16,693 nucleotides of DNA. It comes from Thermoplasmatales archaeon (GTDB taxonomy: Archaea > Thermoplasmatota > E2 > UBA202 > DSCA01). The DNA lies in the NCBI GenBank assembly GCA_011049295.1, contig DSCA01000203.1, positions 1 through 16,693 on the forward strand. Reading direction: 5' to 3'. Numbering within the stretch: the stretch's first letter is position 1; the number at the start of each line of letters is the position of its first letter. Positions 1 to 16,693 of this stretch are shown here, one piece after another. Below the pieces are notes generated by a model. The model worked only from the letters and a program-made list of their open reading frames with translations, was not told the origin of the DNA and did not search any database. The translations under genes and the position numbers were made by a program.

Positions 1-121
1 CTGCAGCATCGCCCACAATGATAGACTTCTTTCAGCGGTTAGCATGTATCCAGCAGGTGCTGATGCTGGCCCCATCACCACCTGCTGCGTGCTGCCTTCT
101 CATTTACCGGACAACGCTTGT

Positions 122-322: not shown

Positions 323-343
323 GTTTCCCCGATGGGCTGCGCC

Positions 344-351
344 TTTAAAAA
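344..351 (-). promoter_or_regulatory. TATA-like box (tttttaaa on the minus strand) about 26 nt upstream of the tautomerase ATG at 322; leaderless
   Basis: AT-rich octamer in a 71-nt divergent intergenic region. The spacing fits archaeal TATA/TSS geometry. Confidence 0.45.
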
Positions 352-364
352 GGTGCGCCATAAC

Positions 365-373
365 TATAAATAA
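365..373 (+). promoter_or_regulatory. TATA box (tataaataa) about 25 nt upstream of the ATG at 394; leaderless stomatin transcript
   Basis: Near-consensus archaeal TATA element centred at 369. There is no SD before the ATG. Confidence 0.5.
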
Positions 374-393
374 GGTTATGCCCATGTAACCAT

Positions 394-1161: not shown

Positions 1162-1163
1162 GG

Positions 1164-1829: not shown

Positions 1830-1869
1830 AGTTTCCCTCTTTTTACGAAACCCACGAGCATATTAAAGG

Positions 1870-2304
1870 TTAACCGTAGGTGGTAAATTTCCATTCCACG
1901 GTGTCGCCCTCCTGCACGGGCTGGCGGTCCGCTCCCACCATGCCGTAGTCGCCGTTTATCCAGTACAGCCAGTAGCGGTCCTGGTAGCCGTTTTCCACGC
2001 CGGCGATGGAGCCCACGAGCAGGCTGTCGTACTGGCCGTAGTAGGTGGTCTCTACCGTGAAGTTGCCCTGGCTGGCAGCCGCTGTGAGCAGACCAAGTAC
2101 TGTGGCATTGTGGTGATGCACCGTGAGGGAGGGATACCGCCATACGCTGCCGTTGGCAAAGGTGATGACCAGGGTTGCCTGCACCGGCTGGTCTCCAGAT
2201 TGGGAAACGTCGTTCTCCTGGCTGAGGGTGTAGGCATAGACGGCCAGGATGGCTGCAAAGACCGTGGATAAAACGGCGATGGCTGCCAGGATTTCCCGTC
2301 TCAT
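1870..2304 (-). CDS. DUF4430-like protein (transcobalamin/intrinsic-factor C-terminal-like fold) with an N-terminal signal/anchor helix, 144 aa
   Basis: N-terminal hydrophobic helix MRREILAAIAVLSTVFAAILAVYAY. C-terminal pattern YWLYWINGDYGMVGADRQPVQEGDTVEWKFTTY matches the W.Y.VNG...G......GD.I.W.Y signature of DUF4430 and the transcobalamin beta-domain. Confidence 0.65.
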   Translation of the reverse strand: MRREILAAIAVLSTVFAAILAVYAYTLSQENDVSQSGDQPVQATLVITFANGSVWRYPSLTVHHHNATVLGLLTAAASQGNFTVETTYYGQYDSLLVGSIAGVENGYQDRYWLYWINGDYGMVGADRQPVQEGDTVEWKFTTYG

Positions 2305-2398
2305 GTGTCCACCATAAATTTTTTTTTACAAAAGTAAAGTAAATTTTATATTTAAGGCTTGCGGGAAGGTTTAAGAGGCAACTGCGTATTGAGCACCA
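2305..2398. promoter_or_regulatory. AT-rich bidirectional promoter region between the divergent DUF4430 operon (-) and the regulator gene (+)
   Basis: A 94-nt spacer at about 25% GC in a roughly 63% GC background. It contains tttttttttacaaaagtaaagtaaattttatatttaagg with TATA-like elements oriented toward both starts. Confidence 0.5.
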
Positions 2399-3214
2399 AT
2401 GGACCTGCTCAGAGAAAAATCCCTCTCCACCCAGGTGCTCATTTTGCTGGAAATAGTCACCGGTCACCACTCCCGCCTGGCCCCCATCGCCGCCAAAATC
2501 GGCATCACCAAGCAGGCGGTCTCAGACTACCTGAAAAAAATGCGGGAGGACGGGCTGGTGAGAATGGCCGACGGCGAATACCGGGCCACCATGCAGGGCA
2601 CCCAGTTCCTGCACGCTCAGCTGCTGGAGCTCAAGCGGTTCTTGGAAAGCAGTCTCCAGAAGCTGGACATCATCGAGCGAGGGATAGCCATGGCCGGCAA
2701 CCCCATCCGGGAGGGAGACACGGTGGGGCTGTTCATGGAGCAGGGCATGCTGACCGCCTACAGCGGAAAAACATCATCCTCGACGGGGGTTGCCGTGCAC
2801 GACGCCTCCCCCGGAGAGGAGATAGCCATCCGTCACCTGAACGGCATGGTGGCCCTGGAGATGGGAACGGTGTACATGCTGGAACTCCCCGGCCCCGGGG
2901 AGGGAGGCTCTCGGGCCCTGGACGTGGAGGGCGTAGCCTCCACGCTGGAGGAGCTGTCGCCCCACCTGGTGGGGGCGGCGGGGGCGGTGGCCAGAGCCGT
3001 GCTGCACAAAATAGGCCAGAAACCGGACCTGGAATTCGGCATAGCCCCGGCCACCGTGGAGGCGGCACAGCGGGGGCTGAGCGTGGCCCTGCTGGGCAGC
3101 AGCGACGAAATATCTCCAGTGCTGTCCGCCATCGAGGAGTTCAACCGCTCGTCGCCCAGACGCCTCCCCTGTCAGGTCATCCGTTTTTCTCCTAAAACTA
3201 TTAAAAAGAGATAG
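2399..3214 (+). CDS. Winged-HTH transcriptional regulator with an uncharacterised C-terminal domain of about 190 aa, 271 aa
   Basis: The N-terminal 75 aa (LSTQVLILLEIVTGHHSRLAPIAAKIGITKQAVSDYLKKMREDGLV) are a MarR/ArsR-like wHTH. I do not recognise the rest. The alternative-frame ORF 2359-3195 is Arg/Gly-rich and spurious. Confidence 0.7.
   Translation: MDLLREKSLSTQVLILLEIVTGHHSRLAPIAAKIGITKQAVSDYLKKMREDGLVRMADGEYRATMQGTQFLHAQLLELKRFLESSLQKLDIIERGIAMAGNPIREGDTVGLFMEQGMLTAYSGKTSSSTGVAVHDASPGEEIAIRHLNGMVALEMGTVYMLELPGPGEGGSRALDVEGVASTLEELSPHLVGAAGAVARAVLHKIGQKPDLEFGIAPATVEAAQRGLSVALLGSSDEISPVLSAIEEFNRSSPRRLPCQVIRFSPKTIKKR
3201..3208 (+). promoter_or_regulatory. TATA-like element (ttaaaaag) about 24 nt upstream of the ATG at 3228
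   Basis: It lies inside the last codons of the regulator gene. The spacing supports ATG 3228 rather than GTG 3219 as the start of the ligase. Confidence 0.35.
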
Positions 3215-3227
3215 CGATGTGGAAACC

Positions 3228-4769
3228 ATGACGCTCTACGACCTTCTGAAACGAGGGGAGCGCCTGCACGCCGACCGACCCGCCGTCCTGTTCGGGGACG
3301 AGGTGCTCACCTACCACAAACTCAGGGAGCAGGCAGACGCGGTGGCCTCCTCCCTCCTGGAGCTGGGCATACAAAAGGGCGACAAGGTGGGGGTGTGGCT
3401 GCCCAACAGCGGCCGCTTTCTCTCCCTGTATTTCGGCATCACCGCCGTGGGAGCCACCATGGTGCCCCTGAACACCCGGTATCGTGCCCATGAGGTGTCC
3501 TACATCCTGCGCAATTCAGAGGCCCGAGCCCTGTTCATGGTGCCCTCCTTCCTCAAAATGGATTACCGGGAGATGCTGGCCGAGGTGCGCCCCCAGCTGG
3601 AAGGCCTGCAGCACGTGGTGGCCGTTGATGCAGAGGACAGCAGCGACGACGTCGGCCTGTCCTGGAGGGAATTTGTGGCCGGGAGCCGGCACTGCGACCC
3701 CGAGGAGCAGAGGGCGGAAGACGAGGACGTGGCTCTCATCCTCTATACCTCGGGCACCACCGGCCAGCCCAAGGGGGTGATGCTCACCCACCGCAACCTG
3801 GCCACCAACGCCCGGGTGACCGGAGAGGTCATGGAGGTGACCCCGGAGGACCGCTATTTCGTGCCCCTTCCCCTGTTCCATTCCTTCGGCCTGGTGCTGG
3901 GATGCCTGACCCCTCTCACCTTTGGCAGCAGCATCGTGCTCCAGGACGTGTTCGACGCCCGGGAGGCCCTGGAACTCATGGAGAAACACCGGTGCACCAT
4001 GAACTTCGGGGTACCCACCATGTTCATGCTGGAGCTGGAGGAGATGAGAAAGAGTTCCTACCACCTGTCTCTGCGCAGCGGCATGATGGGCGGCGCCCCC
4101 TGCCCCATAGAGGTGGTGAAGGGGGTACGCCAGGAGATGGGCTGCAACGTGTGCATCGGCTACGGCATCACCGAGACCTCCCCCCTCATCTCGCTCACCC
4201 GCTACCACGATGACGACGTCCAGCGGGCGGAAAGCGTGGGCCGGCCCCTTCCCGGGGTGGAGGTGCGAATCGTGGACGACCAGTGGAGGACCCTCCCGGA
4301 CGGGGAAATTGGGGAAATCGCCATTCGGGGCAACGTTATGAAGGGCTACTACCGGATGCCCGAGGCCACCCGGGAGGCCGTGGACGACCAGGGCTGGTAC
4401 TACAGCGGAGACCTGGGAAAAATGGATGCACAGGGCTACCTGTACATCACCGGGCGGAAAAAAGACATGATTGTGGTGGGAGGATTCAACGTCTATCCCC
4501 GGGAAATCGAGGAAGTGCTGTTCACTCATCCCGGGGTCCAAAACGTGGCCGTCATCGGGGTTCCCGACCCCCGGCTGGGGGAGGCGGTCAAGGCATGCAT
4601 CGTCCCCCGCGGCCAGGTGAGCAAAGAGGACATCAGGGAGTTCTGCCGCCAGAGGATGGCCAACTTCAAGGTGCCCACGTACGTGGAATTCATGGACTCC
4701 TTCCCCATGACGGCCAGCGGAAAGATTCAGAAGTACAAGTTGAGGGAGCAGCATGACCCATCCCAGTGA
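3228..4769 (+). CDS. AMP-forming acyl-CoA synthetase/ligase (ANL superfamily, FadD-like), about 513 aa
   Basis: Canonical motifs YTSGTTGQPKGV, GYGITE, YYSGDLG and GRKKDMIVVGGFNVYPREIE. The track's start at 3219 is GTG. I prefer the in-frame ATG at 3228 (MTLYDLL...). Confidence 0.9.
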   Translation: MTLYDLLKRGERLHADRPAVLFGDEVLTYHKLREQADAVASSLLELGIQKGDKVGVWLPNSGRFLSLYFGITAVGATMVPLNTRYRAHEVSYILRNSEARALFMVPSFLKMDYREMLAEVRPQLEGLQHVVAVDAEDSSDDVGLSWREFVAGSRHCDPEEQRAEDEDVALILYTSGTTGQPKGVMLTHRNLATNARVTGEVMEVTPEDRYFVPLPLFHSFGLVLGCLTPLTFGSSIVLQDVFDAREALELMEKHRCTMNFGVPTMFMLELEEMRKSSYHLSLRSGMMGGAPCPIEVVKGVRQEMGCNVCIGYGITETSPLISLTRYHDDDVQRAESVGRPLPGVEVRIVDDQWRTLPDGEIGEIAIRGNVMKGYYRMPEATREAVDDQGWYYSGDLGKMDAQGYLYITGRKKDMIVVGGFNVYPREIEEVLFTHPGVQNVAVIGVPDPRLGEAVKACIVPRGQVSKEDIREFCRQRMANFKVPTYVEFMDSFPMTASGKIQKYKLREQHDPSQ

Positions 4770-5931
4770 CGACCTCCGGGGGAGCTCCTCGGACAAACTG
4801 CGGGGAAAAACCGTGGTCCTGGGCGTCACCGGCAGCATCGCCGCCGTGGAGAGCGTCAAACTGGCCCGGGAGCTGACCCGGCACGGGGCCCGGGTGATTC
4901 CGGTGATGAGCCCCGCGGCCTGCCGCATCCTGCACCCCGACGCCCTGTGGTTTGCCACGGGCAGAAAGCCGGTCACCGACCTGACCGGGGACGTGGAGCA
5001 CGTCCGCCACTGCGGACGGCGAGAGAACCAAGCGGATATGCTGCTGGTGGCCCCCTGCACCGCCAACACCCTGTCCAAAATAGCCCTGCGGATAGACGAC
5101 ACCCCGGTGACCACCATGGCCACCACCGCCGTGGGCTCCGGCCTGCCGGCGCTGCTGGTCCCCGCCATGCATGCCGCCATGTACGACAATCCCTTCGTCA
5201 GGGACAACCTGCAGAGGTGCCGGGAGCAAGGCATCCATCTCGCCGACCCCCGCCGGGCAGAGGGAAAAGCCAAGATGCCGGAGATGGAGGACGTCGTGGC
5301 CCGGGTGCTGCGCCTGCTGGGAAAAAACGACTGGGCGGGAAAGCAGGTGCTGGTGGTGGGCGGGGCCACCGCCGAATACCTGGACCCGGTACGGGTGCTC
5401 ACCAACCGGTCATCGGGAAAAATGGCCCTGGCCCTGGCCGCCGCGGCCTACCAGCGGGGGGCGGAAGTGGAACTCTGGCACCACGGACTGAACCCCCCTG
5501 CTTACCTCAGCAGTAGCACCTTTACCACCAGCGTTGACCTGGTGCGCCGCGTCCAGCAGGCCGGCCGGTACCACTGCATCATCAACTGCGCCGCCATCAC
5601 CGACTTCACCTGCCGAGCCCAGGAGAGAAAAATGGCCTCCGGCCAGCCCCTGGACCTGCACCTAGAGCCGGTGCCCCGGATCAATCCCCTGCTGAGGGAG
5701 CACGCCAACCTGCTGGTGGGCTTCAAGCTGGAAACCGACCGGGAGCGGGCCCTGGAGCGGGCCTGGGAGACGCTGCACCGGGACGGGCTGGACTACGTGG
5801 TGGCCAACACCACGGCCTCCCTGGGAGGAGACGACGCCCAGGCCTGGATTATAGACCGGGAGAAAAACACCACGCCGGCCAGCGGAGCCAAATCCCAGGT
5901 GGCGGACAGACTCCTGGACCTCATACGATGA
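4753..5931 (+). CDS. coaBC: Bifunctional phosphopantothenoylcysteine decarboxylase / phosphopantothenate-cysteine ligase (CoaBC/Dfp), 392 aa
   Basis: N-terminal flavoprotein domain (KTVVLGVTGSIAAVES, PCTANTLSKIA) and C-terminal CoaB domain (GGATAEYLDPVRVLTNRSSGKMA). It overlaps the upstream ligase gene by 17 nt. Confidence 0.9.
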   Translation: MTHPSDDLRGSSSDKLRGKTVVLGVTGSIAAVESVKLARELTRHGARVIPVMSPAACRILHPDALWFATGRKPVTDLTGDVEHVRHCGRRENQADMLLVAPCTANTLSKIALRIDDTPVTTMATTAVGSGLPALLVPAMHAAMYDNPFVRDNLQRCREQGIHLADPRRAEGKAKMPEMEDVVARVLRLLGKNDWAGKQVLVVGGATAEYLDPVRVLTNRSSGKMALALAAAAYQRGAEVELWHHGLNPPAYLSSSTFTTSVDLVRRVQQAGRYHCIINCAAITDFTCRAQERKMASGQPLDLHLEPVPRINPLLREHANLLVGFKLETDRERALERAWETLHRDGLDYVVANTTASLGGDDAQAWIIDREKNTTPASGAKSQVADRLLDLIR

Positions 5932-6764
5932 ATGCCATCGCCTTTGCCCCCGCCCATGTCACCGGCTTTTTTGAAATATGCCGCACCTCCTCCCCGGAGA
6001 CCACCGGCTCCCGGGGGGCTGGTCTCTGCCTGTCCCTGGGGGCCACGGCCAGCGTGGAGCGCAGCGATCACACAGAGGTTATGGTAAACGGCCGTCCCGG
6101 GGGGGAGGTCACCGCCACCGCCCTCCGCCTGCTCACCCCGGAACCCCTCCGTGCCCATGTCACCCTGGACTTGCCCGTCTCCCAGGGCCTGGGGATGAGC
6201 GCCGCCGGAACCCTGGCCTCCACCCTGGCCGCTGCCTCCCTGCTGTGGCTGCCCCGGAAACGGGCGGTGGCCGCGGCTCACGTGGCCGAGGTTCGCTGCT
6301 CCACCGGCCTGGGAGACGTGCTGGCGGCGGCCCGGGGAGGGATAGAGGTACGGCTATCGCCGGGGCTGACCGGAGAAATCATCGGGGTGCCCGGAGGAGG
6401 GGAGGTGGTGGTGGCCGTGGTGGGCCCCCCGCTGCCCACCGTACAGGTGGTGACCGACGACCGGCAGGGGCAGCACATCTCCCGGGTGGGGAGACGATGC
6501 GTGGAGGACATGCTGCGCCGGCCCACCCTGGACAACCTGTTTTTTTTGTCCCGGCGGTTTGCCGAGGAAACAGGGCTCCTGCAGCCGGCGGTGGGGGCGG
6601 CAGTGGAGGCAGCGGCGGAGCATAGCCGGGTCTCCATGTGCATGCTGGGAAACGCGGTGTTTGCCATGGGGGACACTCCCGCCCTGCAGGAGGCGCTGGC
6701 CGGGCACGGAGACGTATACACCTGCCGTGTAGCGCAGAGAGGAGCCCGGCTCATCGGCCACTGA
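5928..6764 (+). CDS. GHMP-family kinase, probably archaeal pantoate kinase (PoK), 278 aa
   Basis: GHMP motif II PVSQGLGMSAAGTLASTLAAA. ATGA stop/start overlap with coaBC. Size and context fit COG1829 pantoate kinase, but archaeal GHMP shikimate kinase is not excluded. Confidence 0.65.
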   Translation: MNAIAFAPAHVTGFFEICRTSSPETTGSRGAGLCLSLGATASVERSDHTEVMVNGRPGGEVTATALRLLTPEPLRAHVTLDLPVSQGLGMSAAGTLASTLAAASLLWLPRKRAVAAAHVAEVRCSTGLGDVLAAARGGIEVRLSPGLTGEIIGVPGGGEVVVAVVGPPLPTVQVVTDDRQGQHISRVGRRCVEDMLRRPTLDNLFFLSRRFAEETGLLQPAVGAAVEAAAEHSRVSMCMLGNAVFAMGDTPALQEALAGHGDVYTCRVAQRGARLIGH

Positions 6765-6788
6765 GGTGGCCGTCAAAATTCGACAACG

Positions 6789-6796
6789 TTTTATAG
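6789..6796 (+). promoter_or_regulatory. TATA box (ttttatag) about 24 nt upstream of the ATG at 6816
   Basis: Near-consensus archaeal TATA in the 51-nt spacer after the PoK stop. Confidence 0.45.
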
Positions 6797-6815
6797 GCCG
6801 TACGGGTTTTTCGCC

Positions 6816-6989
6816 ATGGTCATTTTCGGCGTTCCCCTGTGGCTGCTGCTTCTCGTGGTCATTGCGGTCGTTCTCATCGGTTGGAAACTGGTGAAGTTTG
6901 CCCTCACCCTGCTGCTGTTGCTCATCCTGGTGCTGGGCATTCTGATGGTGGCAGACCTGATATGGCCCCACCTGACGTCGCTGTTCTAG
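6816..6989 (+). CDS. Small hydrophobic protein, 57 aa, two predicted TM helices; not in the ORF track
   Basis: ATG..TAG ORF encoding MVIFGVPLWLLLLVVIAVVLIGWKLVKFALTLLLLLILVLGILMVADLIWPHLTSLF. It has its own TATA at -24 and coding-like GC3 bias. It sits in a 265-nt gap that no credible ORF otherwise covers. Confidence 0.45.
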   Translation: MVIFGVPLWLLLLVVIAVVLIGWKLVKFALTLLLLLILVLGILMVADLIWPHLTSLF

Positions 6990-7001
6990 ACCCGGATTAA
7001 C

Positions 7002-7010
7002 TCTTTAAAC
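7002..7010 (+). promoter_or_regulatory. TATA-like element (tctttaaac) about 24 nt upstream of the hutI ATG at 7030
   Basis: AT-rich element in the 40-nt spacer. Confidence 0.35.
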
Positions 7011-7029
7011 AGCCGCCCATTTACCTCTT

Positions 7030-8208
7030 ATGATTCTCATCAGGGAGGCCAGCGAGGTTTTTCTGCCTGACGGCGTGGCCACCCATGCCTCGGTGCTGAT
7101 TGAGGATGGACGCATACGGGACATCGGACGGCAGGTGACGGCCCGGGGGGCGGAGGTCATCGACGCCCGGGGCAAGACCCTGCTGCCCGGCTGGGTGGAC
7201 AGCCACACCCACGTGGTGTTCGCCGGCTCCCGGGAATTCGAGCTGGACCTGAAGCTCCAGGGTGCCACCTACCGGGAGATTGCCGCCCGGGGGGGAGGCA
7301 TCGGCTACACGGTGCAGCAGACCCGCCGGGTGTCGGAGGAGAGGTTGCAGGCAGAGGCGGAGTTGCGCCTGGACGCCATGCTGGCCCACGGGACCACCAC
7401 CGCCGAGGTGAAAAGTGGCTACGGCCTGGACACCAAAAGTGAGGTCAAGATGCTGCGGACGGTCCGCCACCTGAACGAGCGGCATCCCGTGGACCTGGTT
7501 CCCACCTTCATGGGTGCCCACGCCATACCTCCGGGCGTGGACCGGGAGGATTACGTCAGACTGGTGAGGGAGGAGATGATTCCCCGGGTGGCGGAGGAGC
7601 AGCTGGCCGTGTTCTGCGACGTCTTCTGCGAGGAGGGATACTTCAGCGTGGAGGAGTCACGGGCCATCCTGCAGGCGGGGCGGGAGCACGGCCTGACCCC
7701 CCGGGTGCACGCCGACGAGCTCTCCGACTCCGGGGGGGCGGAGCTGGCGGCCGAGCTGAAGGCGGCCAGCGCCGACCACCTCCTCATGGCCTCCCCCCGG
7801 GGGCTGAAAAAAATGGCCCGGGCCGGGGTGCCCGCCGTGCTGCTCCCCGCGGTTCCCTTTTCCCTGATGCAAAAGAGGTACGCCCCCGCCCGGAAGATGC
7901 TGGAGCTGGGACTGGATGTGGCCCTGGCCACCGACCTCAATCCCAACTGCTGGACGGAAAACATGCAGTTCGTCATCCAGCTGGCCTGCTTTGCCATGGG
8001 CATGACCCCCCGGGAGGCCATCCACGGAGCCACCCTGGGGGGGGCCAGGGTGCTGGGTCTGGAACGGGAGGTGGGCAGCATCGAGGTGGGCAAAAAGGCC
8101 GACCTGCTGCTGGTCAATGCCCCCTCCCATCTGTTCGTCCCCTACCACTTCGGGGTGAACCTGGTGGAGACGGTCATCAAGGACGGCGTGGTGGTATGCG
8201 GGGGGTAG
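7030..8208 (+). CDS. hutI: Imidazolonepropionase (HutI, amidohydrolase superfamily), 392 aa
   Basis: Collinear with bacterial HutI: LLPGWVDSHTHVVFAGSREFELDLKLQGATY, GGGIGYTVQQTR, TTTAEVKSGYGL, PVDLVPTFMGAHAIPP, HADEL..GGAELAAELKAASADHL, ADLLLVNAPSHLFVPYHFGVN. Confidence 0.85.
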   Translation: MILIREASEVFLPDGVATHASVLIEDGRIRDIGRQVTARGAEVIDARGKTLLPGWVDSHTHVVFAGSREFELDLKLQGATYREIAARGGGIGYTVQQTRRVSEERLQAEAELRLDAMLAHGTTTAEVKSGYGLDTKSEVKMLRTVRHLNERHPVDLVPTFMGAHAIPPGVDREDYVRLVREEMIPRVAEEQLAVFCDVFCEEGYFSVEESRAILQAGREHGLTPRVHADELSDSGGAELAAELKAASADHLLMASPRGLKKMARAGVPAVLLPAVPFSLMQKRYAPARKMLELGLDVALATDLNPNCWTENMQFVIQLACFAMGMTPREAIHGATLGGARVLGLEREVGSIEVGKKADLLLVNAPSHLFVPYHFGVNLVETVIKDGVVVCGG

Positions 8209-8825
8209 CACTGGTCTCCGGAGGGATTGACTCCCCGGTGGCCCTGTACGTGATGGCCCGTCACATGGAATGCCTGGCCCTGCACATGGACACCCGCCCC
8301 TTCCTGCCCATGGACGAGAGGGGCAAGGTGGCATCCCTGGTGCGGCGGGTGGCGGAGGCGGCGGGGAGGCAGATACCGCTGTGGCACGTGCCCTTCGGCG
8401 AGGTGGTGCAGAGGGCCATCGCCGCCCACACCCGCCCCCACTACCACTGCCTGCTGTGCAAGCGCATGATGTACCGGGTGGCGGCGGCCCTGGCCGGGCA
8501 GCAGCGGGCATCCGTGGTGGTCACCGGAGAAAACCTGGGCCAGGTGGCCTCCCAGACTCTGCACAACCTGCGGGTGCTGGAGGAAAGCATCGACCTGCCC
8601 GTGGTGCGCCCCCTGATTGGGCTGGACAAGCAGGAAATCGTGGACCTGGCCCGGCACATCGGCACCTACCAGCTGTCCATCGAGGAGGCGCCCTCCTGCC
8701 TGCTGGTGCCGGACGCCCCGGCCACCGCCGCCGCCCTGGAGGCCGTGCACGCCGAGGAGGAAAATCTGGACGTGGCCGGGCTGACGGCCCGGGCATTAAA
8801 GGAAGCGCGCATGGAGAAACTTTAA
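8196..8825 (+). CDS. Stand-alone ThiI-type PP-loop ATPase domain protein (tRNA-sulfurtransferase catalytic domain; no THUMP or rhodanese domain), 209 aa
   Basis: PP-loop ALVSGGIDSPVA at the very N-terminus, plus ThiI hallmarks TGENLGQVASQTLHNLRVLE and RPLIGLDKQEIVDLARHIGTY. It has a CxxC (HCLLCKRMMY) like methanogen ThiI. It overlaps hutI by 13 nt. Confidence 0.8.
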   Translation: MRGVALVSGGIDSPVALYVMARHMECLALHMDTRPFLPMDERGKVASLVRRVAEAAGRQIPLWHVPFGEVVQRAIAAHTRPHYHCLLCKRMMYRVAAALAGQQRASVVVTGENLGQVASQTLHNLRVLEESIDLPVVRPLIGLDKQEIVDLARHIGTYQLSIEEAPSCLLVPDAPATAAALEAVHAEEENLDVAGLTARALKEARMEKL

Positions 8826-8833
8826 AAAATAAA
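8821..8833 (+). promoter_or_regulatory. TATA element (tttaaaaaataaa) about 24 nt upstream of the tRNA-Val 5' end
   Basis: It overlaps the stop codon of the ThiI-like gene. The spacing is right for the mature 5' end at 8851. Confidence 0.45.
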
Positions 8834-8850
8834 CGCCCATTATAGCAGAG

Positions 8851-8924
8851 GGGCTCTTGGTCTAGCTGGTTATGACGTCGCCTTGACATGGCGGAGGTCC
8901 TGGGTTCGAATCCCAGAGAGCCCA
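8851..8924 (+). tRNA. tRNA-Val (anticodon GAC), 74 nt, no encoded CCA
   Basis: Manual fold: acceptor GGGCTCT/AGAGCCC, D-loop with A14 and G18G19, anticodon stem TCGCC/GGCGG with loop TTGACAT (U33, GAC, A37), 5-nt variable loop, T-arm CTGGG-TTCGAAT-CCCAG, discriminator A. Confidence 0.9.
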
Positions 8925-8966
8925 CTGGTGGCACGAGGGGAGCCGGGGCGCCCGCCCATGAACAAG

Positions 8967-9004
8967 TTTTATATAGGCCAGAGTCAATAGTAAATGGGAG
9001 GTGA
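8967..9004 (+). promoter_or_regulatory. TATA box (ttttatatag, 8967-8976) plus a strong SD (GGGAGGTGA, 8996-9004) upstream of the ATG at 9008
   Basis: Unlike most genes in the window, this one has a canonical SD 3 nt before the ATG. Confidence 0.5.
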
Positions 9005-9007
9005 AAA

Positions 9008-9421
9008 ATGAGGAGAATAATGGCCACGGCTGCGGCGGTGCTGGTGGCGGCAGCAGCCCTGATGCCCGCCCTGGTGACAGAGGCAGAGGCTGGCACCCTG
9101 GACGGAGTGGACATCAGATGGGAGGGACGGCATCTGGTGGTCACCAACAACAACGACTATTCCATCTACAACCTGTGGGTGGGAAACCTGACCCTCACCG
9201 GCTTTATAGTGTTCGGACGGATGATTGGCTTCAACACCACCATATCTGAGGTCCTCCCCGGCGCCAGTTGCTCCCTTTCCCTGGGAACGGGCATGCTCTT
9301 CGGTTTCGGTCCCGCCAGGCTGACCGTCGTGGTTTCCTACCTCGACCAGGGGGAGCAGGTGAGCCAGGAGGCCACCACCAGCCTCTTCCTGCTGGGCCCC
9401 TTCACCCTGTTCCTGGGGTAA
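9008..9421 (+). CDS. Small secreted/exported protein of unknown function (signal peptide, hydrophobic C-terminus), 137 aa
   Basis: N-terminus MRRIMATAAAVLVAAAALMPALVTEAEA-GT looks like a cleavable signal peptide. A beta-rich middle follows. The C-terminus SLFLLGPFTLFLG is hydrophobic. Confidence 0.6.
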   Translation: MRRIMATAAAVLVAAAALMPALVTEAEAGTLDGVDIRWEGRHLVVTNNNDYSIYNLWVGNLTLTGFIVFGRMIGFNTTISEVLPGASCSLSLGTGMLFGFGPARLTVVVSYLDQGEQVSQEATTSLFLLGPFTLFLG

Positions 9422-9463
9422 AAAACTGACTGCCGTACGGGAATCGGACACCCTGCGCTATTC

Positions 9464-9473
9464 TTAAATATAT
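9464..9473 (+). promoter_or_regulatory. TATA box (ttaaatatat) about 24 nt upstream of the ATG at 9493; leaderless
   Basis: Near-consensus TATA. No SD. Confidence 0.5.
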
Positions 9474-9492
9474 CCGCCCGCATCCCACCCCC

Positions 9493-10119
9493 ATGACCCG
9501 CTACGAGCTGGTGGCCCTGGACATGGACGGCGTGCTGGTAGACATGCGCAGCTCCTGGCGCTACATCCACACCTGCTTCGCCACCGACAACAGAGACACC
9601 GTGCAGGCCTACCTGCGAGGCGACATCGGCAGCCGGGAGTTCATGGAGCGGGACATCGCCCTGTGGCGCCGAGCCAACCGGTGCCGGGCGGACCTGGAAA
9701 AGGCCTTTGACCGGGTGGCCATCATGCCGGGAGCCCGGGAGTGCATCCAGGCGCTGCACGAGCAGGGCGTGGCCACCGCCATCGTGTCCGGCGGACTGGA
9801 CATCCTGGCCCGGCGCATCGCCGCCCAGACCGGCATCCGTCACGTGCTGGCCAACGGCATCCACGGCGAGCTGGAGGGCAGCATAACGAGGGTGCCCATC
9901 GAGGACAAGGGCATGGCGGTGCGGGACCTGGCCACAGAGCTGGGGGTACCAAGAGAGCGGGTGGCGGCGGTGGGCAACTCCCGCTACGACATCTCCATGT
10001 TTGAGGCGAGCGGCCTAGGCATCGCCTTCAATCCCTGCGACCAGCAGGTGGTGGAGGCCGCGGACGTGGTTATCAAAGAAAAAGATTTAACCAGACTTCT
10101 TGATTACCTGCTGGCATGA
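9493..10119 (+). CDS. HAD-superfamily hydrolase, subfamily IB (phosphoserine-phosphatase-like), 208 aa
   Basis: Motif I LVALDMDGVLVD, motif II IVSGG, C-terminal VGNSRYDISMFEASGLGIAFNP (a GDGxND variant), as in SerB-like phosphatases. Confidence 0.8.
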   Translation: MTRYELVALDMDGVLVDMRSSWRYIHTCFATDNRDTVQAYLRGDIGSREFMERDIALWRRANRCRADLEKAFDRVAIMPGARECIQALHEQGVATAIVSGGLDILARRIAAQTGIRHVLANGIHGELEGSITRVPIEDKGMAVRDLATELGVPRERVAAVGNSRYDISMFEASGLGIAFNPCDQQVVEAADVVIKEKDLTRLLDYLLA

Positions 10120-10736
10120 TTTCCTTCAATCTGCTGGTGCTGTTCATCGCGGCCCTGGTCTTCTATCTCCTGTTCTCCCTGTTTTACGGGGCCTTCGTGG
10201 AGGTGGGGTTCTCCCGGCTGGAGGCCAGCCTGATCGTGTTTGGCTCCCTGCTGCTGGGCCTGGTGGACATCTATCTTTTCACCTATGGAAACTGGCGGAT
10301 TGCGGTGAACATAGGCGGGGCGGTGATTCCGGTGATGGTCAGCGTCTACCTGACGGCCAAGAGAAAATTCGTGGGCCGGGCCCTGCTGGGCATCGCTCTG
10401 GTGTCCCTGTTCACCTACCAGGTCACCGAGGTGACCACCCGGGGTATCTCCTCCCCCTTTCCCCTCTGGCTCCTGCCCCCGGCGGTGGCCAGCCTGTTCT
10501 CCCTGCTGGCCTGCTACCGGAAGCCCAGGCAGGCGGCGCCCCTGGCCTACGTGACCGGAACCCTGGGGGTGCTGGTGGGAGCGGACTTTTTCCACCTGCC
10601 GGAGCTGCTGCGCCTGCCCACCCCCCAGACGGTCACCGCCTCCATCGGGGGAGCGGCCATCTTCGACATGGTGTTTCTGGCGGGCATCATCGCCGTGCTC
10701 ATCGACTCCCTGTTCATGGCCCGCCGACAGGGATAA
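10116..10736 (+). CDS. Integral membrane protein of about 6 TM helices, unknown function (resembles the DUF1614-type archaeal/bacterial family), 206 aa
   Basis: ATGA overlap with the HAD gene. Highly hydrophobic, with NIGGAVIP and SIGGAAIFD repeats that suggest an internal duplication. The alternate-frame ORF 10100-10747 is Gly/Pro/Arg-rich and spurious. Confidence 0.7.
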   Translation: MISFNLLVLFIAALVFYLLFSLFYGAFVEVGFSRLEASLIVFGSLLLGLVDIYLFTYGNWRIAVNIGGAVIPVMVSVYLTAKRKFVGRALLGIALVSLFTYQVTEVTTRGISSPFPLWLLPPAVASLFSLLACYRKPRQAAPLAYVTGTLGVLVGADFFHLPELLRLPTPQTVTASIGGAAIFDMVFLAGIIAVLIDSLFMARRQG

Positions 10737-10738
10737 AC

Positions 10739-10746
10739 ATTTATTA
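10739..10746 (+). promoter_or_regulatory. TATA-like element (atttatta) about 25 nt upstream of the ATG at 10768; leaderless
   Basis: It starts 3 nt after the stop of the membrane-protein gene. Confidence 0.45.
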
Positions 10747-10767
10747 GGCAAGCCTATTTGTCCTTTC

Positions 10768-11070
10768 ATGATAATTGCGGAACTGGCCATCTTTCCCACC
10801 TCGGAGGGAACATCGGTGAGCCGCTACGTGAAGGCCGCCGTGGAGGCGCTGGAGGAGACGGGGCTGACCACCCACACCGGCCCCATGGCCACCTGCATCG
10901 AGGGTCCGGATCTGTCTGCCATTCTGCGGGCGGTGGAAAGGGCCCACCGGGCCATGGTGGACATGGGTGCCCGGCGCATCCATATCGACCTCCGCATTGA
11001 CCACCGCCTGGACAAGGAGGCCACCATGGCCGCCAAGCTGGCATCCATTGGAAAGGGTGACCATGCATAG
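10768..11070 (+). CDS. MTH1187/YkoF-family protein (UPF0045; thiamine/HMP-binding-like ferredoxin fold), 100 aa
   Basis: MIIAELAIFPTSEG...SVSRYVKAAVEALEETGL...TGPMATCIEGP is the characteristic N-terminal strand, G-rich loop and helix of the MTH1187/YkoF family. Size matches. Confidence 0.75.
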   Translation: MIIAELAIFPTSEGTSVSRYVKAAVEALEETGLTTHTGPMATCIEGPDLSAILRAVERAHRAMVDMGARRIHIDLRIDHRLDKEATMAAKLASIGKGDHA

Positions 11071-12019
11071 CCTGTGGGTGGAGAAGTACCGTCCGGAAAC
11101 ACTGGACCAGGTGGTGGGGCAGGTGGGGGTGGTGGACAGCCTGCGGGCCTACGCGGCGTCGGGCAGCATTCCCCACCTGCTGTTTGCGGGGCCGGCGGGA
11201 ACCGGCAAGACCACCTGTGCCATCGCCCTGGCCAAGCAGCTGTACGGCGAGACTTGGAGGGACAACTTCGAGGAGCTGAACGCCAGCGACGAGCGGGGCA
11301 TAGACGTGGTACGGGGAAAAATCAAGAACTTCGCCCGCACCGCCCCCCTAGGGGAGGCCTCCTTCAAGATTATTTTTCTGGACGAGGCGGATTCCCTGAC
11401 CCCGGACGCCCAGTCCGCCCTCCGCCGCACCATGGAGCGCTACGCCCGCATCTGCCGCTTCATCCTCTCCTGCAACTACTCCTCTAAAATCATTGACCCC
11501 ATCCAGTCCCGGTGTGCGGTGTTCCGCTTCTCCCCCATCGACCGGGAGGACATGCGATGCCATCTCTCCCGGGTGGCCCAGCGGGAGGGGCTGGAGATAA
11601 CCGGGGACGGCATGGAGGCCCTGCTGTACATAGCCCGGGGGGACCTGCGCAAGGCCCTCAACGCCCTGCAGACCTCGGCCACCCTCTCCCAGACCATAGA
11701 TGCCGACTCGGTGTACTGCACCACGGCCACGGCCCGGCCCGAGGAGGCCCAGCAGGTGATGGAGGTGGCCCTGCGGGGAAACTTTCTGGAGGCCCGGGCC
11801 CTCCTGGACAAGATGCTGATTGACTACGGGCTGAGCGGGGAAGACGTCATCAAGGGCATGCACAGCGCCCTGTTCGACCTGCCCATCCCGGAAAAGGCCA
11901 AGGCGGACATCGTGGAAAAGATGGGAGAGGCGGAGTTCCGCATGGTGGAGGGGAGCAACGAGCGCATTCAGATTGAGGCGCTACTGGCCCATCTGGCGAT
12001 GGCGGGGAGAGCGCGATGA
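11063..12019 (+). CDS. rfcS: Replication factor C small subunit (clamp-loader AAA+ ATPase), 318 aa
   Basis: MHSLWVEKYRPETLDQVVGQ (RFC box II), Walker A LLFAGPAGTGKTT, Walker B IIFLDEADSLT, SRC motif PIQSRCAVFRF. A GGGTGA SD lies 4 nt upstream. The true start is ATG 11063. The track's GTG 10967 start runs through the upstream gene in another frame. No intein. Confidence 0.9.
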   Translation: MHSLWVEKYRPETLDQVVGQVGVVDSLRAYAASGSIPHLLFAGPAGTGKTTCAIALAKQLYGETWRDNFEELNASDERGIDVVRGKIKNFARTAPLGEASFKIIFLDEADSLTPDAQSALRRTMERYARICRFILSCNYSSKIIDPIQSRCAVFRFSPIDREDMRCHLSRVAQREGLEITGDGMEALLYIARGDLRKALNALQTSATLSQTIDADSVYCTTATARPEEAQQVMEVALRGNFLEARALLDKMLIDYGLSGEDVIKGMHSALFDLPIPEKAKADIVEKMGEAEFRMVEGSNERIQIEALLAHLAMAGRAR

Positions 12020-13620
12020 AAAAGGCGGACCTGCCCCTCGTCCGGTGGGATCGGGTGCAGGAACGCTCCTATCAGATTAACGTTTTTGAGCAGGTGAAGG
12101 ACCGGAAATCCCTGGTGGTGCTGCCCACCGGGCTGGGGAAGACCATCATTGCCATCCTGGTGCTGGCCTACCGGGCGGAGCGGGGGCGCATCCTGTTTCT
12201 GGCGCCCACCAAGCCCCTGTGCGAACAGCATGCGGTCTCCATATCCCGGCTGACCTCCCTGGAGCCGGTGGTGGTCACCGGGGAGCTGTACGGCCCGGAC
12301 CAGAGGAAGGAGATATATCGCCGGGGAGAGGTGGTGGTGGCCACCCCGCAGACCGTGGAGAACGACCTGGACCGGGGCGTCAATCCGGGTGACTTCAGCC
12401 TGATTGTGTTTGACGAGGCCCATCGGGCGGTGGGCAGCTACGCCTACGTGGGAATCGCCCGGCGCTATCTGCGGCGGGGCAGCCAGATACTGGGCATGAC
12501 CGCCTCACCGGGGAGCGATTACAAAAAACTGAGGGAGGTGGCGGACCATCTGGGCATCGAGCACGTGGAGCTGCGCACCGAGCAGGACCCCGACGTGCAG
12601 CCCTACCTGGCCCAGCGAAGGATGCGCTGGGTGCTGGTGGACATGCCGGAGGAGGTGAAGCGCATTGTGCGCCGCCTGGACGTCATGCTCACCGATTTTT
12701 TGGCCGAGCTGGCCACCTACACCCGGCAGGCCCGTAACCTGTCGGCGGGCAAGCTGAGCAAAAAGGCGCTCATCGACATCCAGAGCCGGATGCGGAGTCA
12801 TCTGGGGAAGCGGGGGGGCTCCATGTACAAGGCCATCAGCGTGGTCTCCGCCGCCATCAAGCTGGCCCATCTCAAGGACATGCTGACCAGTCAGGGTGTG
12901 GAGGCCGCCCAGAGCTACCTGGCCAAGCTGGAGTTCGACCGGTCCAAGGCGGCGGCCAGCATCCGCAAGCACCGGCTGTATCCATCCATCCGGCGGGACA
13001 TCGTGACCCTGGAGGCGCAGCGGCCCAAGCTGGAGAAGACCCGGGACATTCTCCTTCAGCACCTGGAGCGCCACCCGGACGGACGGGTCATCCTGTTTGC
13101 CGAGTACCGGGACACCATCGATTTTTTGCTGAGGGCCATCCAGAGCCTTCCCGGGGTGAGGGCCCGCAGATTCATCGGCCAGGCCCGGGGCGCCAACGAC
13201 GGCATGAGCCAGGAGGAACAGAAGGAGACCCTGCAGGCCTTCCGGGAGGGGGAGTTCAACGTTCTGGTGTCCACCAGCATCGGCGAGGAGGGCATCGACG
13301 TGCCGGCCACCACCCTGGTGCTGTTCTACGAGCCCGTACCCTCGGCCATCCGGGCCATCCAGCGGCGGGGGCGGACCGCCCGGGACGGGGTGCCGGGCAT
13401 GGTGGTCATCCTGATTATGAAGGGCTCCCGGGACGAGGCCTACTACTGGAGCAGCAGGGGCAAGGAGAAGAAGATGTACCAGCAGATTGCCCGGCTGAAG
13501 CGGGAGCTGGAAACAGCGGAGACCCCGTCCGGGTGGCATCCCTCCCCGCCGAAAAAAAGGGAGAAGGTGCCCACCGACCAGCGGGGGCAGAGCCGGCTGG
13601 ACAGCTTTTATCCCGGGTAG
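12016..13620 (+). CDS. Hef/FANCM-family SF2 helicase (helicase module only; no XPF/ERCC4 nuclease or HhH2 domain), 534 aa
   Basis: Motif I VLPTGLGKT, II VFDEAHRAVG, III LGMTASPG, VI QRRGRTARDG, with a roughly 200-aa helical insertion between the RecA lobes as in Pyrococcus Hef. The protein ends about 10 aa after the helicase core. ATGA overlap with rfcS. Confidence 0.85.
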   Translation: MKKADLPLVRWDRVQERSYQINVFEQVKDRKSLVVLPTGLGKTIIAILVLAYRAERGRILFLAPTKPLCEQHAVSISRLTSLEPVVVTGELYGPDQRKEIYRRGEVVVATPQTVENDLDRGVNPGDFSLIVFDEAHRAVGSYAYVGIARRYLRRGSQILGMTASPGSDYKKLREVADHLGIEHVELRTEQDPDVQPYLAQRRMRWVLVDMPEEVKRIVRRLDVMLTDFLAELATYTRQARNLSAGKLSKKALIDIQSRMRSHLGKRGGSMYKAISVVSAAIKLAHLKDMLTSQGVEAAQSYLAKLEFDRSKAAASIRKHRLYPSIRRDIVTLEAQRPKLEKTRDILLQHLERHPDGRVILFAEYRDTIDFLLRAIQSLPGVRARRFIGQARGANDGMSQEEQKETLQAFREGEFNVLVSTSIGEEGIDVPATTLVLFYEPVPSAIRAIQRRGRTARDGVPGMVVILIMKGSRDEAYYWSSRGKEKKMYQQIARLKRELETAETPSGWHPSPPKKREKVPTDQRGQSRLDSFYPG

Positions 13621-15014
13621 CCCCCGATGTGCAGGCTGGGGTCGCCCAGCAGCACCCATTCCTGCACGGTTTTGGCGTCCAGGGCGGTGTCGTGGAAGGC
13701 CTGCTGGCTCCAGTCTACGGGAAACTCGTCCAGGTAGGAGGAGATGGCCTGCCGCCAGGCGTCGCCCAGCACCTGCTGCCCCTGCTGCCCGTAGGCGTGG
13801 AAAAACAGCACGTTGAGGTGGTCGCCGCCTCCCTCCGTGGCCTCCTGCTTGTCCTCCCTGCCGTAGCCCAGGCCAGTGCAGCCCAGGGTGGCTATGGCTC
13901 CGCCGTTGGTGCAGCGGGTGAGACGCCACCCCCAGCATTCGTAGACGGGGAGGCCGAAGGTCCAGGTGGTATGGGTGAGACTGATGTTGAACATGCAGTT
14001 GTGGCATCCGCCCACCACGCACACCGGCAGCCAGTGGCCGTTGGTGAGCAGGGGCATGTGCAGGTTCTGCAGCCCGTAGATCCACACCGAGTCGTCGTAG
14101 GGGGGATGGGTGGCCCAGGTGGTGGGGCTGCCGTGGCCGGCGAAGAATAAAAAGCCGCAGCCCTGGTTGATGGTGCCCACCACGTCCCGCCAGCCCTGCA
14201 GGGAGCCGTCCGAGGTGTACAGGGTAACCGGGGTGAAGTCGGTCATGTGCTCCAGGGCCTGCCGGGTGACCTCCTCTCCCTCGAAGTAGTCGTTGAAGGT
14301 GTAGGTGTCCCCGGCCACCGCCACCATGCGCTGGAACCAGCCGGGGTCGGCGGGGGTGCTCTCGTAGGAGATGATTTTGTTCACCATGATGTCCACCTCC
14401 CGGGCGTTGCGGCAGGGAAGCCGGCCCACGGCCACCTCCGGGTAGAGGTCGGCTACATCCTCGGCCGGCTGGCGGGCCCGCCACTCGCCGTAGATGCCGT
14501 CTCCATCGGTGTCCCAGGATGAAAAGGTGCCATTGCGGTCGTAGATGTCGGCAAAGTACAGGTCGCTGATATACCGTTTTTCCTGGGTGGCCACGTTGTC
14601 CTCGATGTGGCTGTACCGCACGGGCAGCCACCAGGGCTCGCCGCTCAGCGAGGGGCGCCGCCCCCCCACCAGCAACAGGTAGGATATGTTCCAGGTGTCC
14701 AGGGCATATCGGACAAAGTACTTTATCTGCTCCGCCTGGTCCCGGCCCTGCACCGGGGTGTAGGTTCCCCCGTAGATGTCCTCCAGGGTGACCGTCAGGG
14801 TGGCCAGGCCCCTGTTGTCCTTGTGCTCCGTCAGGGGGGCCAGGTGTGCCTCCCAGGCCGCCGGGGTGACCACCAGCAGGTCATACCGGTCGGTGACCGG
14901 CTGGGCCTCCCACCGCACCCGGTCCCCCTGAAGGGGAACGGTGGTCAGGGCGGTCAGGGAGCCGGACATGACCAGGACGCCCAGCGCCACCATCACGATT
15001 GTTTTTCCAGACAT
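13608..15014 (-). CDS. Secreted clan-CD cysteine peptidase, C25/gingipain-like, 468 aa
   Basis: Signal peptide MSGKTIVMVALGVLVMSGSLTA. The clan-CD pattern is a hydrophobic strand plus His-Gly (FLFFAGHGSPTTW) followed by a hydrophobic strand plus Cys (LPVCVVGGCHNCMF). A GGAGG SD lies 6 nt upstream on the minus strand (15021-15025). The gene converges on the Hef gene with a 13-nt overlap. Confidence 0.6.
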   Translation of the reverse strand: MSGKTIVMVALGVLVMSGSLTALTTVPLQGDRVRWEAQPVTDRYDLLVVTPAAWEAHLAPLTEHKDNRGLATLTVTLEDIYGGTYTPVQGRDQAEQIKYFVRYALDTWNISYLLLVGGRRPSLSGEPWWLPVRYSHIEDNVATQEKRYISDLYFADIYDRNGTFSSWDTDGDGIYGEWRARQPAEDVADLYPEVAVGRLPCRNAREVDIMVNKIISYESTPADPGWFQRMVAVAGDTYTFNDYFEGEEVTRQALEHMTDFTPVTLYTSDGSLQGWRDVVGTINQGCGFLFFAGHGSPTTWATHPPYDDSVWIYGLQNLHMPLLTNGHWLPVCVVGGCHNCMFNISLTHTTWTFGLPVYECWGWRLTRCTNGGAIATLGCTGLGYGREDKQEATEGGGDHLNVLFFHAYGQQGQQVLGDAWRQAISSYLDEFPVDWSQQAFHDTALDAKTVQEWVLLGDPSLHIGGYPG

Positions 15015-15117
15015 GCTGTGCCTCCACTACCATAAGCCGCAGGGCCTAAAAATGGTTTTCCCTCGCGCATCACCGGCCCGAGGTTAGCGTTAAGTAGCCC
15101 CCACCGTTTTTATCCCC

Positions 15118-16212
15118 ATGACCTCCTGCGCACTGGACATCCGGGAGCTCTCCCGGGTTTTTGACGGGGAAAGCAGGCCCACCTATGTCAGCCTCTACTC
15201 CGACGGCACCGACCCCCGGTTCATACACCGGCGCCGGCAGGCCATCCGATCCGCCCTGCCCTCCCACCTGCGGGAAAACTTCCAGCAGACCATGCAGGAA
15301 GTCACTCGCTACCTGAATGACCACGGCAGCCGCAACGTGGCCCTTTTTGCCTCCGCCGCCCATGATTTTTTCAAGGCGGTGAGCCTGACCGATGCACCCC
15401 CCAACCTCCTGGTGGTGGACTCCTCCCCCTACATTCGCCCCCTGGCCGCCCTGGACGACCAGTGGGAGGGATTCACCCTGGTGCTCATGAACACCCATCA
15501 CGCCAAAATATACAGCGTGGCCTGCAGCGACATCGCCCGGGAAAAAGAGCTCTCCCGGGAGGTGATGAACAAGCACAAAAAGGGAGGCATGTCCCAGGCC
15601 CGGTTCCAGAGGCTGCGCAGGGGCAGCATCCACCACTTTTACCAGGACCTCAGGGGGGCCCTGCCGGCCCCGGGCAGCCAGAAAATCATCCTGGCCGGCC
15701 CCGGAGAGGCCAAGCACCAGTTCCTCCACCATCTGTCCCCGCCTCTGCAGGAAAACGTGGTGGCCCTCATCGATGCCCCCATGGACGGCGAGCAGGAGCT
15801 GTGGGAGGACTCCATCCACGCCATGCGCGAGCACGGTCAGGAGGTGAAAGGACGCCTGCTGGACCAGCTGAAGAAGGAGATACTGACCGACGGACTGGCC
15901 GCCTACGGCGTCTCCGAGGTCACCCGGGCCACCCGCAACGGTCAGGTGGAAGTGCTGTTCGTGGAGCGGGGACACCGGCAGCGGGGCTGGCTGTGCGAGC
16001 GATGCCAGCGCCTGGGGACAGGCACCGCCCCCTCCTGCCCCACCTGCGGGAAGCCGGTAACCACCGTGGACGTGCTGGAGGAAATCATGGAGTTTGCTCA
16101 GCGTACCGGCGCCCCTGTCACCTTCGTGGATGACGACTTTGTGGGGCAGATGGGCCACGTGGCAGCTCTTCTCCGCTATCGAACCGAGAATACAGGAGAG
16201 GCGGTGGCCTGA
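15118..16212 (+). CDS. eRF1/Pelota-superfamily paralogue with degenerate GGQ (GGM-SQ), no NIKS motif and a C4 zinc-ribbon insertion in the C-terminal domain, 364 aa
   Basis: Central domain aligns with eRF1 domain 2: KHKKGGMSQARFQRLRR versus eRF1 KHGRGGQSALRFARLR, and KIILAGPGEAK versus LVLAGSADFK. The C-terminal domain ends FVDDDFVGQMGHVAALLRY versus eRF1 FVSDKS.EG.QF.KGFGGIGGILRY, and is interrupted by CERCQRLGTGTAPSCPTCGK. The N-domain has an eRF1-like YVSLYSDGTDP but none of the stop-codon-recognition motifs. Confidence 0.8.
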   Translation: MTSCALDIRELSRVFDGESRPTYVSLYSDGTDPRFIHRRRQAIRSALPSHLRENFQQTMQEVTRYLNDHGSRNVALFASAAHDFFKAVSLTDAPPNLLVVDSSPYIRPLAALDDQWEGFTLVLMNTHHAKIYSVACSDIAREKELSREVMNKHKKGGMSQARFQRLRRGSIHHFYQDLRGALPAPGSQKIILAGPGEAKHQFLHHLSPPLQENVVALIDAPMDGEQELWEDSIHAMREHGQEVKGRLLDQLKKEILTDGLAAYGVSEVTRATRNGQVEVLFVERGHRQRGWLCERCQRLGTGTAPSCPTCGKPVTTVDVLEEIMEFAQRTGAPVTFVDDDFVGQMGHVAALLRYRTENTGEAVA

Positions 16213-16238
16213 CCCCCCGGCGGCTGACTGTGCTGGCC

Positions 16239-16693
16239 ATGCCCTGGGCGCTGCTGGCCAGCACCTACCTGGCGTTTGTGGGACTGGAGGAACTGCTGGG
16301 ACCCACCCGGGGCTATTTGGCGGCCTTTGTGGTGTACTGGGTGGGCTGGTGCCTCCTGTTTCCCCTGTGGTTTCTGGGAAAAAAAGAGCTGAAACGTGTG
16401 CTCTCCCCGGTGAGGTTTTCCCGCAGCGGGGCGATGGCCGGGGGCCTGGTGCTGCTGGCAGTGCCGCCGGTGCTGGCCCTGGCCACGGTCTTTGTGACAA
16501 AGATTCCTCAGGCCACCGTGGCCGTGGTTCTGGGGTCCCTGGGCCTGGCGGCGGTAAACGGGACGGCCGAGGAGGTGCTGTGGCGCGGGGTCTACATCCG
16601 GGAGTTTCCCGGAGACATGCTCAGAGGATTCCTGTATCCCACTCTGGGTTTCGCCCTGTGGCATCTCGCCCCCCAGGCGGTGCATCCCCTGTC
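16239..16693 (+). CDS. CPBP-family (CAAX protease / Abi) intramembrane metalloprotease, 3'-truncated by the window edge
   Basis: The open frame from ATG 16239 encodes 3 TM helices, then CPBP motif 1 AEEVLWRGVYIRE and motif 2 GFALWHL. The track does not list it because there is no stop in the window. It lies 26 nt after the eRF1-like gene. Confidence 0.7.
   Translation, partial: MPWALLASTYLAFVGLEELLGPTRGYLAAFVVYWVGWCLLFPLWFLGKKELKRVLSPVRFSRSGAMAGGLVLLAVPPVLALATVFVTKIPQATVAVVLGSLGLAAVNGTAEEVLWRGVYIREFPGDMLRGFLYPTLGFALWHLAPQAVHPL

Follow-up and report, generated by a model that had tools for sequence, protein, structure and literature searches.

Archaeal Hef is usually a single polypeptide of 740-850 aa in which a helicase carries an ERCC4 nuclease and HhH2 in cis. 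Why, then, does a Hef-type helicase gene that follows rfcS, the gene for the small subunit of replication factor C (RFC), stop without its nuclease half, and what does its place beside a clamp-loader gene signify? The locus lies on contig DSCA01000203.1 of assembly GCA_011049295.1 (Thermoplasmatales archaeon; GTDB lineage Archaea; Thermoplasmatota; E2; UBA202; DSCA01), and 'the window' denotes the whole stretch of 16,693 nucleotides analysed (positions 1 to 16,693 of the forward strand; G+C 64%). An earlier interpretation from the letters alone, hereafter the sequence-only reading, had proposed an unusual pairing of a nuclease-less Hef with the clamp loader that resembled eukaryotic FANCM. We estimate a probability of about 85% that the locus encodes RfcS and, directly after it, the helicase half of a split Hef, with the nuclease half residing in a separate gene; a tether to PCNA and co-expression of the two genes are predicted by homology and from sequence features.

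The helicase and its C-terminal motif

The first gene of the pair (11063-12019, + strand) encodes a genuine archaeal RFC small subunit of 318 aa. Its score against the NCBIfam model NF001679 is 481 bits (cutoff 303 bits), and it has a Walker A sequence GPAGTGKT and an SRC motif and contains the Pfam domains Rep_fac_C (PF08542), AAA (PF00004) and AAA_lid_RFC1. A gene for the large subunit, rfcL, was found neither in the window nor in the two 10-kb flanks of the helicase gene on a 64.8-kb contig that carries the same locus.

The second gene (12016-13620, + strand) encodes a protein of 534 aa that is homologous end to end with the helicase half of the fused Pyrococcus and Thermococcus Hefs (42-47% identity). 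The structure of the P. furiosus Hef helicase domain (PDB 1wp9) aligns with aa 9-488 at E 7e-121, unbroken through the helicase insertion domain, and the human FANCM structure 9el5 matches at E 2e-60. Pfam recognizes DEAD, ResIII and Helicase_C in the protein, no ERCC4 or HhH domain, and the helical bundle or thumb between the lobes (PF21210; aa 241-314; 30.4 bits, cutoff 27). Superfamily 2 (SF2) motifs I-VI span two RecA-like lobes between aa 37 and 456 (PTGLGKT 37-43, DEAH 133-136, TASP 162-165, QRRGRTAR 449-456), so that the full motif set and inter-lobe insertion noted earlier are borne out. The NCBIfam model 'Hef nuclease' (NF010337) is matched at profile positions 5-516 of 781 only and with 571.8 bits; since the model is an equivalog for fused Hef with a cutoff of 610 bits, a score below that line is expected of a Hef that lacks the nuclease half. 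On its sequence, the 534-aa protein is thus a helicase-only Hef of the Hef/FANCM/Mph1 SF2 family.

The protein had been thought to end about 10 aa after motif VI, which is incorrect: 78 residues follow, comprising the conserved end of lobe 2 (SRDEAYYWSS..KEKKM), a low-complexity linker of about 35 aa and a canonical PCNA-interacting peptide motif (PIP box). This last element, QSRLDSFY (aa 525-532; 13588-13611, + strand), lies two residues before the stop. The pattern Qxx[LIMV]xx[FYW] occurs inside the last 16 aa of 98 of the 106 helicase-only homologues, against a background expectation of 0.002 per protein, and Q525 is invariant in an alignment of 17 sequences (A1). The motif lines up with a similar one at the start of the inter-domain linker of fused Hefs, as in QRSLSDF of a Thermoplasmatota Hef and KITSLDAFL of Thermococcus, which indicates that the helicase gene ends just past the PCNA-interacting peptide. 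Because the helicase ends in a PIP box, a link with PCNA is plausible.

The form of the gene is reproducible. An identical 534-aa helicase is present on eight independently assembled contigs from JGI, NCBI, ENA and Logan, the exact protein being found in JGI 3300027690 (the 64.8-kb contig), JGI 3300022547, the NCBI metagenome-assembled genome (MAG) GCA_028719305.1, ENA ERZ1742330, Logan SRR5506739 and Logan SRR7787560. The neighbours of the helicase gene are unchanged wherever these contigs are long enough, and the window is 99.98% identical to NODE_1838 of ENA ERZ1742330. Among 7514 helicase homologues, the best approximately 105 (45-89% identity; from Thermoplasmatota, Thermoplasmata and Methanonatronarchaeia) are all 500-550 aa long and devoid of ERCC4, and the fused Hefs (760-806 aa) rank below them. 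The gene is followed by an intact, convergent Peptidase_C25 gene (13608-15014, - strand; PF01364, E 2e-58), with which its 3' end overlaps by 13 nt. The sequence-only reading had correctly placed a convergent peptidase gene directly downstream, but that gene ends there rather than begins. Gene order, including this peptidase gene, is also kept in relatives with 89% and 76% identical helicases; the peptidase gene itself is outside the Hef system. One variant of the helicase-only form was observed on the chromosome of Thermoplasmatales archaeon bin14 (CP070798.1), where an in-frame TAA (10514-10516 of locus L005) divides the gene into open reading frames (ORFs) at 9941-10516 and 10517-11557; a pseudogene, an error of sequencing and recoding are all conceivable explanations.

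Location of the nuclease half

A search of the window with four ERCC4/HhH2 queries (tblastn, E up to 100) gave no nuclease remnant in any frame, the best chance match having an E-value of 0.58, and so upheld the earlier statement that none follows the helicase. The proposal to look elsewhere for an XPF-type nuclease proved fruitful. Searches with a profile built from Hef nuclease domains show that Thermoplasmata MAGs encode many stand-alone proteins of 212-236 aa with ERCC4 and HhH2. Among these is a nuclease of 224 aa (P0316) with ERCC4, HHH_2 and HHH_5 domains, which retains the catalytic residues VDHRE and GDY...VERKRAGD (the ERKxxxD active site) together with HhH2. Its gene is on JAQUKD010000043.1 of MAG GCA_028719305.1, the same MAG that holds the exact helicase on JAQUKD010000003.1. 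Both genes are also present in ENA ERZ1742330, at coverages of 8.52 for the nuclease contig (NODE_5283) and 8.67 for the helicase contig (NODE_1838), and again in JGI 3300027690 and Logan SRR7787560, giving co-occurrence in four of the six datasets that hold the helicase. The link from nuclease to organism was drawn from cluster members and exact look-up.

Comparisons with relatives point the same way. A sister nuclease, P0229, is 92% identical to P0316 and comes from the same Logan run as the 89% identical helicase. Divergence of the two halves runs in parallel, at 92% for the nuclease versus 89% for the helicase to the sister, and about 66-67% versus 66% to a more distant clade (L083). In members of this group (L082-L088) a nuclease gene (P0198) is directly downstream of, and convergent to, a gene for a 525-aa Hef helicase that is about 66% identical to that of the window and is preceded by the same string of HAD, DUF1614, Thiamine_BP and RFC-small genes; the nuclease gene there holds the slot taken by the C25 gene in the window. 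Upstream of P0316 are genes for a PKD protein, ribulose-phosphate epimerase (Rpe) and a hypothetical protein, and the same context is found at L081/L082. This shared PKD-Rpe-hypothetical-nuclease context places a rearrangement breakpoint at the convergent helicase/nuclease junction. Judged by these comparisons, the nuclease half is kept as a separate gene that is unlinked in this organism. The sequence-only reading was therefore right about the polypeptide, which has no nuclease, but not about the organism, which retains an intact nuclease gene; for the same reason the analogy with the nuclease-dead FANCM fails at the level of the genome.

Other contexts were less telling. No nuclease gene was found within 10 kb of the helicase-only genes at the reference-genome loci L001-L010. 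A scan of metagenome contigs with P0229 yielded one locus only (L106), which was not directly informative, and the contexts of nucleases P0217 and P0219 showed no linkage to a helicase and told nothing about this organism. At the nuclease locus of the window's organism (L107 528-6528; L108 393-8311), the nuclease gene is followed by genes for an RHH protein, FtsZ, a beta-CASP nuclease, the Holliday-junction resolvase Hjc and a second C25 peptidase (622 aa). Helicase and nuclease halves as adjacent ORFs on one strand were seen in Micrarchaeota (L079 9953-12066), Methanocellales (L039 9881-12259) and ANME-2 (L060 9902-12371); each case is an independent split or else a fused Hef broken by a frameshift.

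The junction with rfcS and the competing readings

The stop codon of rfcS and the start codon of the helicase gene share the tetranucleotide ATGA (12016-12019, + strand), as the sequence-only reading had stated, and a Shine-Dalgarno-like element, GGGGAGA (12003-12009, + strand), lies 6 nt upstream of the helicase start. Across eight lineages, with helicases of 64-100% identity, the ATG of the helicase gene overlaps the stop codon of rfcS in the form ATGA or TAATG, and all eight have GGGGAGA 5-6 nt upstream of that ATG while the bases around it diverge. The order of the two genes, preceded by the HAD-DUF1614-MTH1187 string, is kept in every relative whose helicase is at least 64% identical, including those at 89%, 76% and about 66%; a check of orthologous loci had been called for in the sequence-only reading. 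These features are consistent with co-transcription and with coupled or Shine-Dalgarno-driven initiation. Overlaps between genes are, however, the norm in the window: six of about ten co-directional gene pairs overlap, and the rfcS start itself overlaps by 8 nt the gene of an MTH1187-family thiamine-binding protein, to which rfcS is unrelated. For this reason ATGA is weak evidence for specific coupling. Of the proposed tie between helicase and rfcS, the tight packing, with its conserved overlap and GGGGAGA, holds, and the argument from ATGA loses most of its force.

Several explanations of the locus have to be set against one another. That the helicase gene is a full-length Hef cut by a local deletion, a frameshift or an assembly error might be suspected because most archaeal lineages in our genome scan carry fused Hefs, but this is barely credible. 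The eight separately assembled contigs and the approximately 105 homologues of the same length rule out a local deletion or assembly error, which the sequence-only reading had itself named as a danger; the homologues stop at the same conserved PIP motif, the convergent gene downstream is intact, and a frameshifted or hidden downstream nuclease is ruled out by the tblastn searches, in which chance matches alone were returned. It is also very unlikely that the nuclease half has truly been lost, leaving a FANCM-like helicase-only Hef that works with other nucleases, and that the ERCC4 contig belongs to another co-occurring organism. Such a loss would fit the lack of a nuclease in the window or up to 10 kb either side on the 64.8-kb contig, the nuclease contig's G+C, 4 points under that of the window, and the potential for contamination of MAG bins. 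It would not account for two genes that share one bin and the same coverage and recur together, for the repetition of the pairing in the sister species, for the parallel divergence of the two halves, or for their physical adjacency in L082-L088, where the upstream PKD-Rpe-hypothetical-nuclease context of this organism reappears.

The significance of the pairing with rfcS is far more evenly balanced. The chance that the juxtaposition is neutral, an inherited compact order in which coupled expression of clamp loader and Hef was not selected, falls only a little short of even. The frequency of overlaps, that of rfcS with its unrelated upstream neighbour included, and the conservation of the whole five-gene string as a block, HAD and DUF1614 genes included, speak for neutrality, as does the absence of the adjacency from more distant helicase-only relatives; against it are the report of the same pairing in distantly related Thermoplasma species, PCNA as the target of both products, and the retention of overlap and Shine-Dalgarno-like element while flanking nucleotides diverge. 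At the other extreme, the conserved overlap and internal element could be a selected device for making the clamp loader together with a fork-remodelling helicase that docks on PCNA, such that Hef directly receives the PCNA loaded at stalled forks, and the separate nuclease (with the Hjc resolvase gene nearby) leaves the cell free to use fork reversal and fork cleavage independently; we regard this as unlikely. Our preferred reading, a split Hef whose helicase half would be tethered to PCNA and co-expressed with RfcS, also has evidence weighing against it. No recognizable PIP box was found in the stand-alone nuclease P0316, and the G+C of its contig is 60% versus 64% for the window, an offset that the sister species shares. 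A caveat is that the nuclease's genome assignment derives from draft-MAG binning, equal coverage and co-occurrence in four datasets rather than from a closed genome. No rfcS was found within 5-10 kb of the helicase-only genes in relatives at or below 59% identity (L004-L010, L117-L119), and, as unrelated genes of the window overlap as a rule, functional selection for the rfcS-hef pairing is a conjecture.

Under the split-Hef reading, an ancestral Hef (helicase, linker, ERCC4 nuclease and HhH2) would have come to be encoded as two genes in this Thermoplasmatota lineage. The helicase gene stops just past the PCNA-interacting peptide that fused Hefs have at the start of the linker, and the nuclease-HhH2 half is the separate 224-aa protein, from a gene that is unlinked here and tail-to-tail with the helicase gene in the relatives at about 66% identity. 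By analogy with Hef of T. acidophilum, the helicase may act as a translocase that remodels forks and junctions, with the C-terminal PIP box docking on PCNA and so recruiting it to stalled forks. Judged by the gene arrangement, a shared transcript very probably covers rfcS and the helicase gene, the last two members of the HAD-DUF1614-MTH1187-rfcS-hef string, and translation of the helicase probably starts at the conserved internal GGGGAGA with the stop/start overlap.

Neighbouring genes, precedents and meaning

The packed co-directional string that leads into rfcS starts with a HAD hydrolase gene (9493-10119, + strand) and continues with a DUF1614 gene (10116-10736, + strand; Pfam) and the gene of the MTH1187-family thiamine-binding protein (10768-11070, + strand) directly 5' of rfcS. 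Start and stop codons commonly overlap by 4-17 nt throughout the window. Further upstream, overlapping genes for an AMP-binding enzyme, a CoaBC-like flavoprotein (DFP) and a GHMP kinase (3219-6764, + strand) may form an archaeal coenzyme A biosynthesis cluster. Beyond the peptidase gene is an ORF for an eRF1-like paralogue (15118-16212, + strand), whose identical counterpart at locus L091 matches baeRF_family10, acVLRF1 and eRF1_2/3 (Pfam). A longer antisense ORF of 476 aa at 15070-16500 (- strand), without a Pfam match, is probably spurious. Past the 3' end of the window, locus L091 encodes a protein of 1226 aa (14909-18589, - strand) that has no Pfam match and is kept in the relative with the 76% identical helicase (L097 7248-10928).

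Every element of the locus has a published precedent, and the arrangement is neither unusual, as had been claimed, nor new. The Hef of Thermoplasma acidophilum (taHef; CAC12619) is 'exclusively the N-terminal helicase entity', and its C-terminal PIP box binds PCNA with a KD of ~1 uM, as was probed by removing 7 residues from the C-terminus and with the mutant I505R/F508S (Rohleder et al. 2016, PMC4838364). A 2008 study (PMC2643942, additional file 3) reported that hef co-localizes with RFC-s in species of Thermoplasma, and the Thermoplasma adjacency rests here on that study. The window's helicase shares with taHef the two RecA lobes, the thumb-like insertion, the absence of ERCC4, the linker, the PIP box at the extreme C-terminus and the position of its gene beside RFC-s, and at 534 aa it falls in the size range of Hefs of the taHef type (about 500-540 aa). 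It differs in coming from an uncultured Thermoplasmatota lineage, taHef being outside its 120 best matches, and in having two aromatic residues in the PIP box (QSRLDSFY) against one in taHef, which, judging by the published primer sequences for cloning and mutagenesis (PMC4838364), appears to end in QKTIFDF. PCNA binding was measured for taHef and is predicted for the window's protein.

Separation of the two halves has likewise been described, with the COG1111 helicase and the ERCC4 nuclease separately located in Thaumarchaeota, Candidatus Caldiarchaeum subterraneum and a minority of euryarchaeotes (Nunoura et al. 2011, PMC3082918). Unlike the splits in Thaumarchaeota and Ca. Caldiarchaeum subterraneum, the present one is in a different phylum, and its relatives show both adjacent convergent and unlinked states. 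Compared with fused euryarchaeal Hef, the PIP-like motif is common to both, standing in the fused form at the linker start, and the nuclease is here supplied from its own gene. FANCM and Mph1 have a homologous helicase core, and a PIP-mediated interaction with PCNA has been reported for FANCM (PMC4838364). FANCM differs, however, in that a degenerate nuclease domain is present in cis and the PIP box is N-terminal, as opposed to an intact nuclease in trans here.

For annotation, the gene should be described as a split Hef that consists of the helicase only and has a PIP box at its C-terminus, and neither as a generic DEAD/DEAH helicase nor as a truncated pseudogene, and the partner nuclease should be sought at another site in the genome; beyond that correct annotation the finding carries little weight, adding a small evolutionary detail to what has been published on taHef and FANCM. 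It extends the helicase-only, PIP-terminated architecture to well over 100 uncultured Thermoplasmatota and Methanonatronarchaeia sequences, shows the position of the Hef split to be just past the PIP motif, and captures two stages of the split, adjacent-convergent and unlinked. The locus thus adds an uncultured Thermoplasmatota lineage to those with a Hef of the known type, which is helicase-only, PIP-terminated and rfcS-adjacent.

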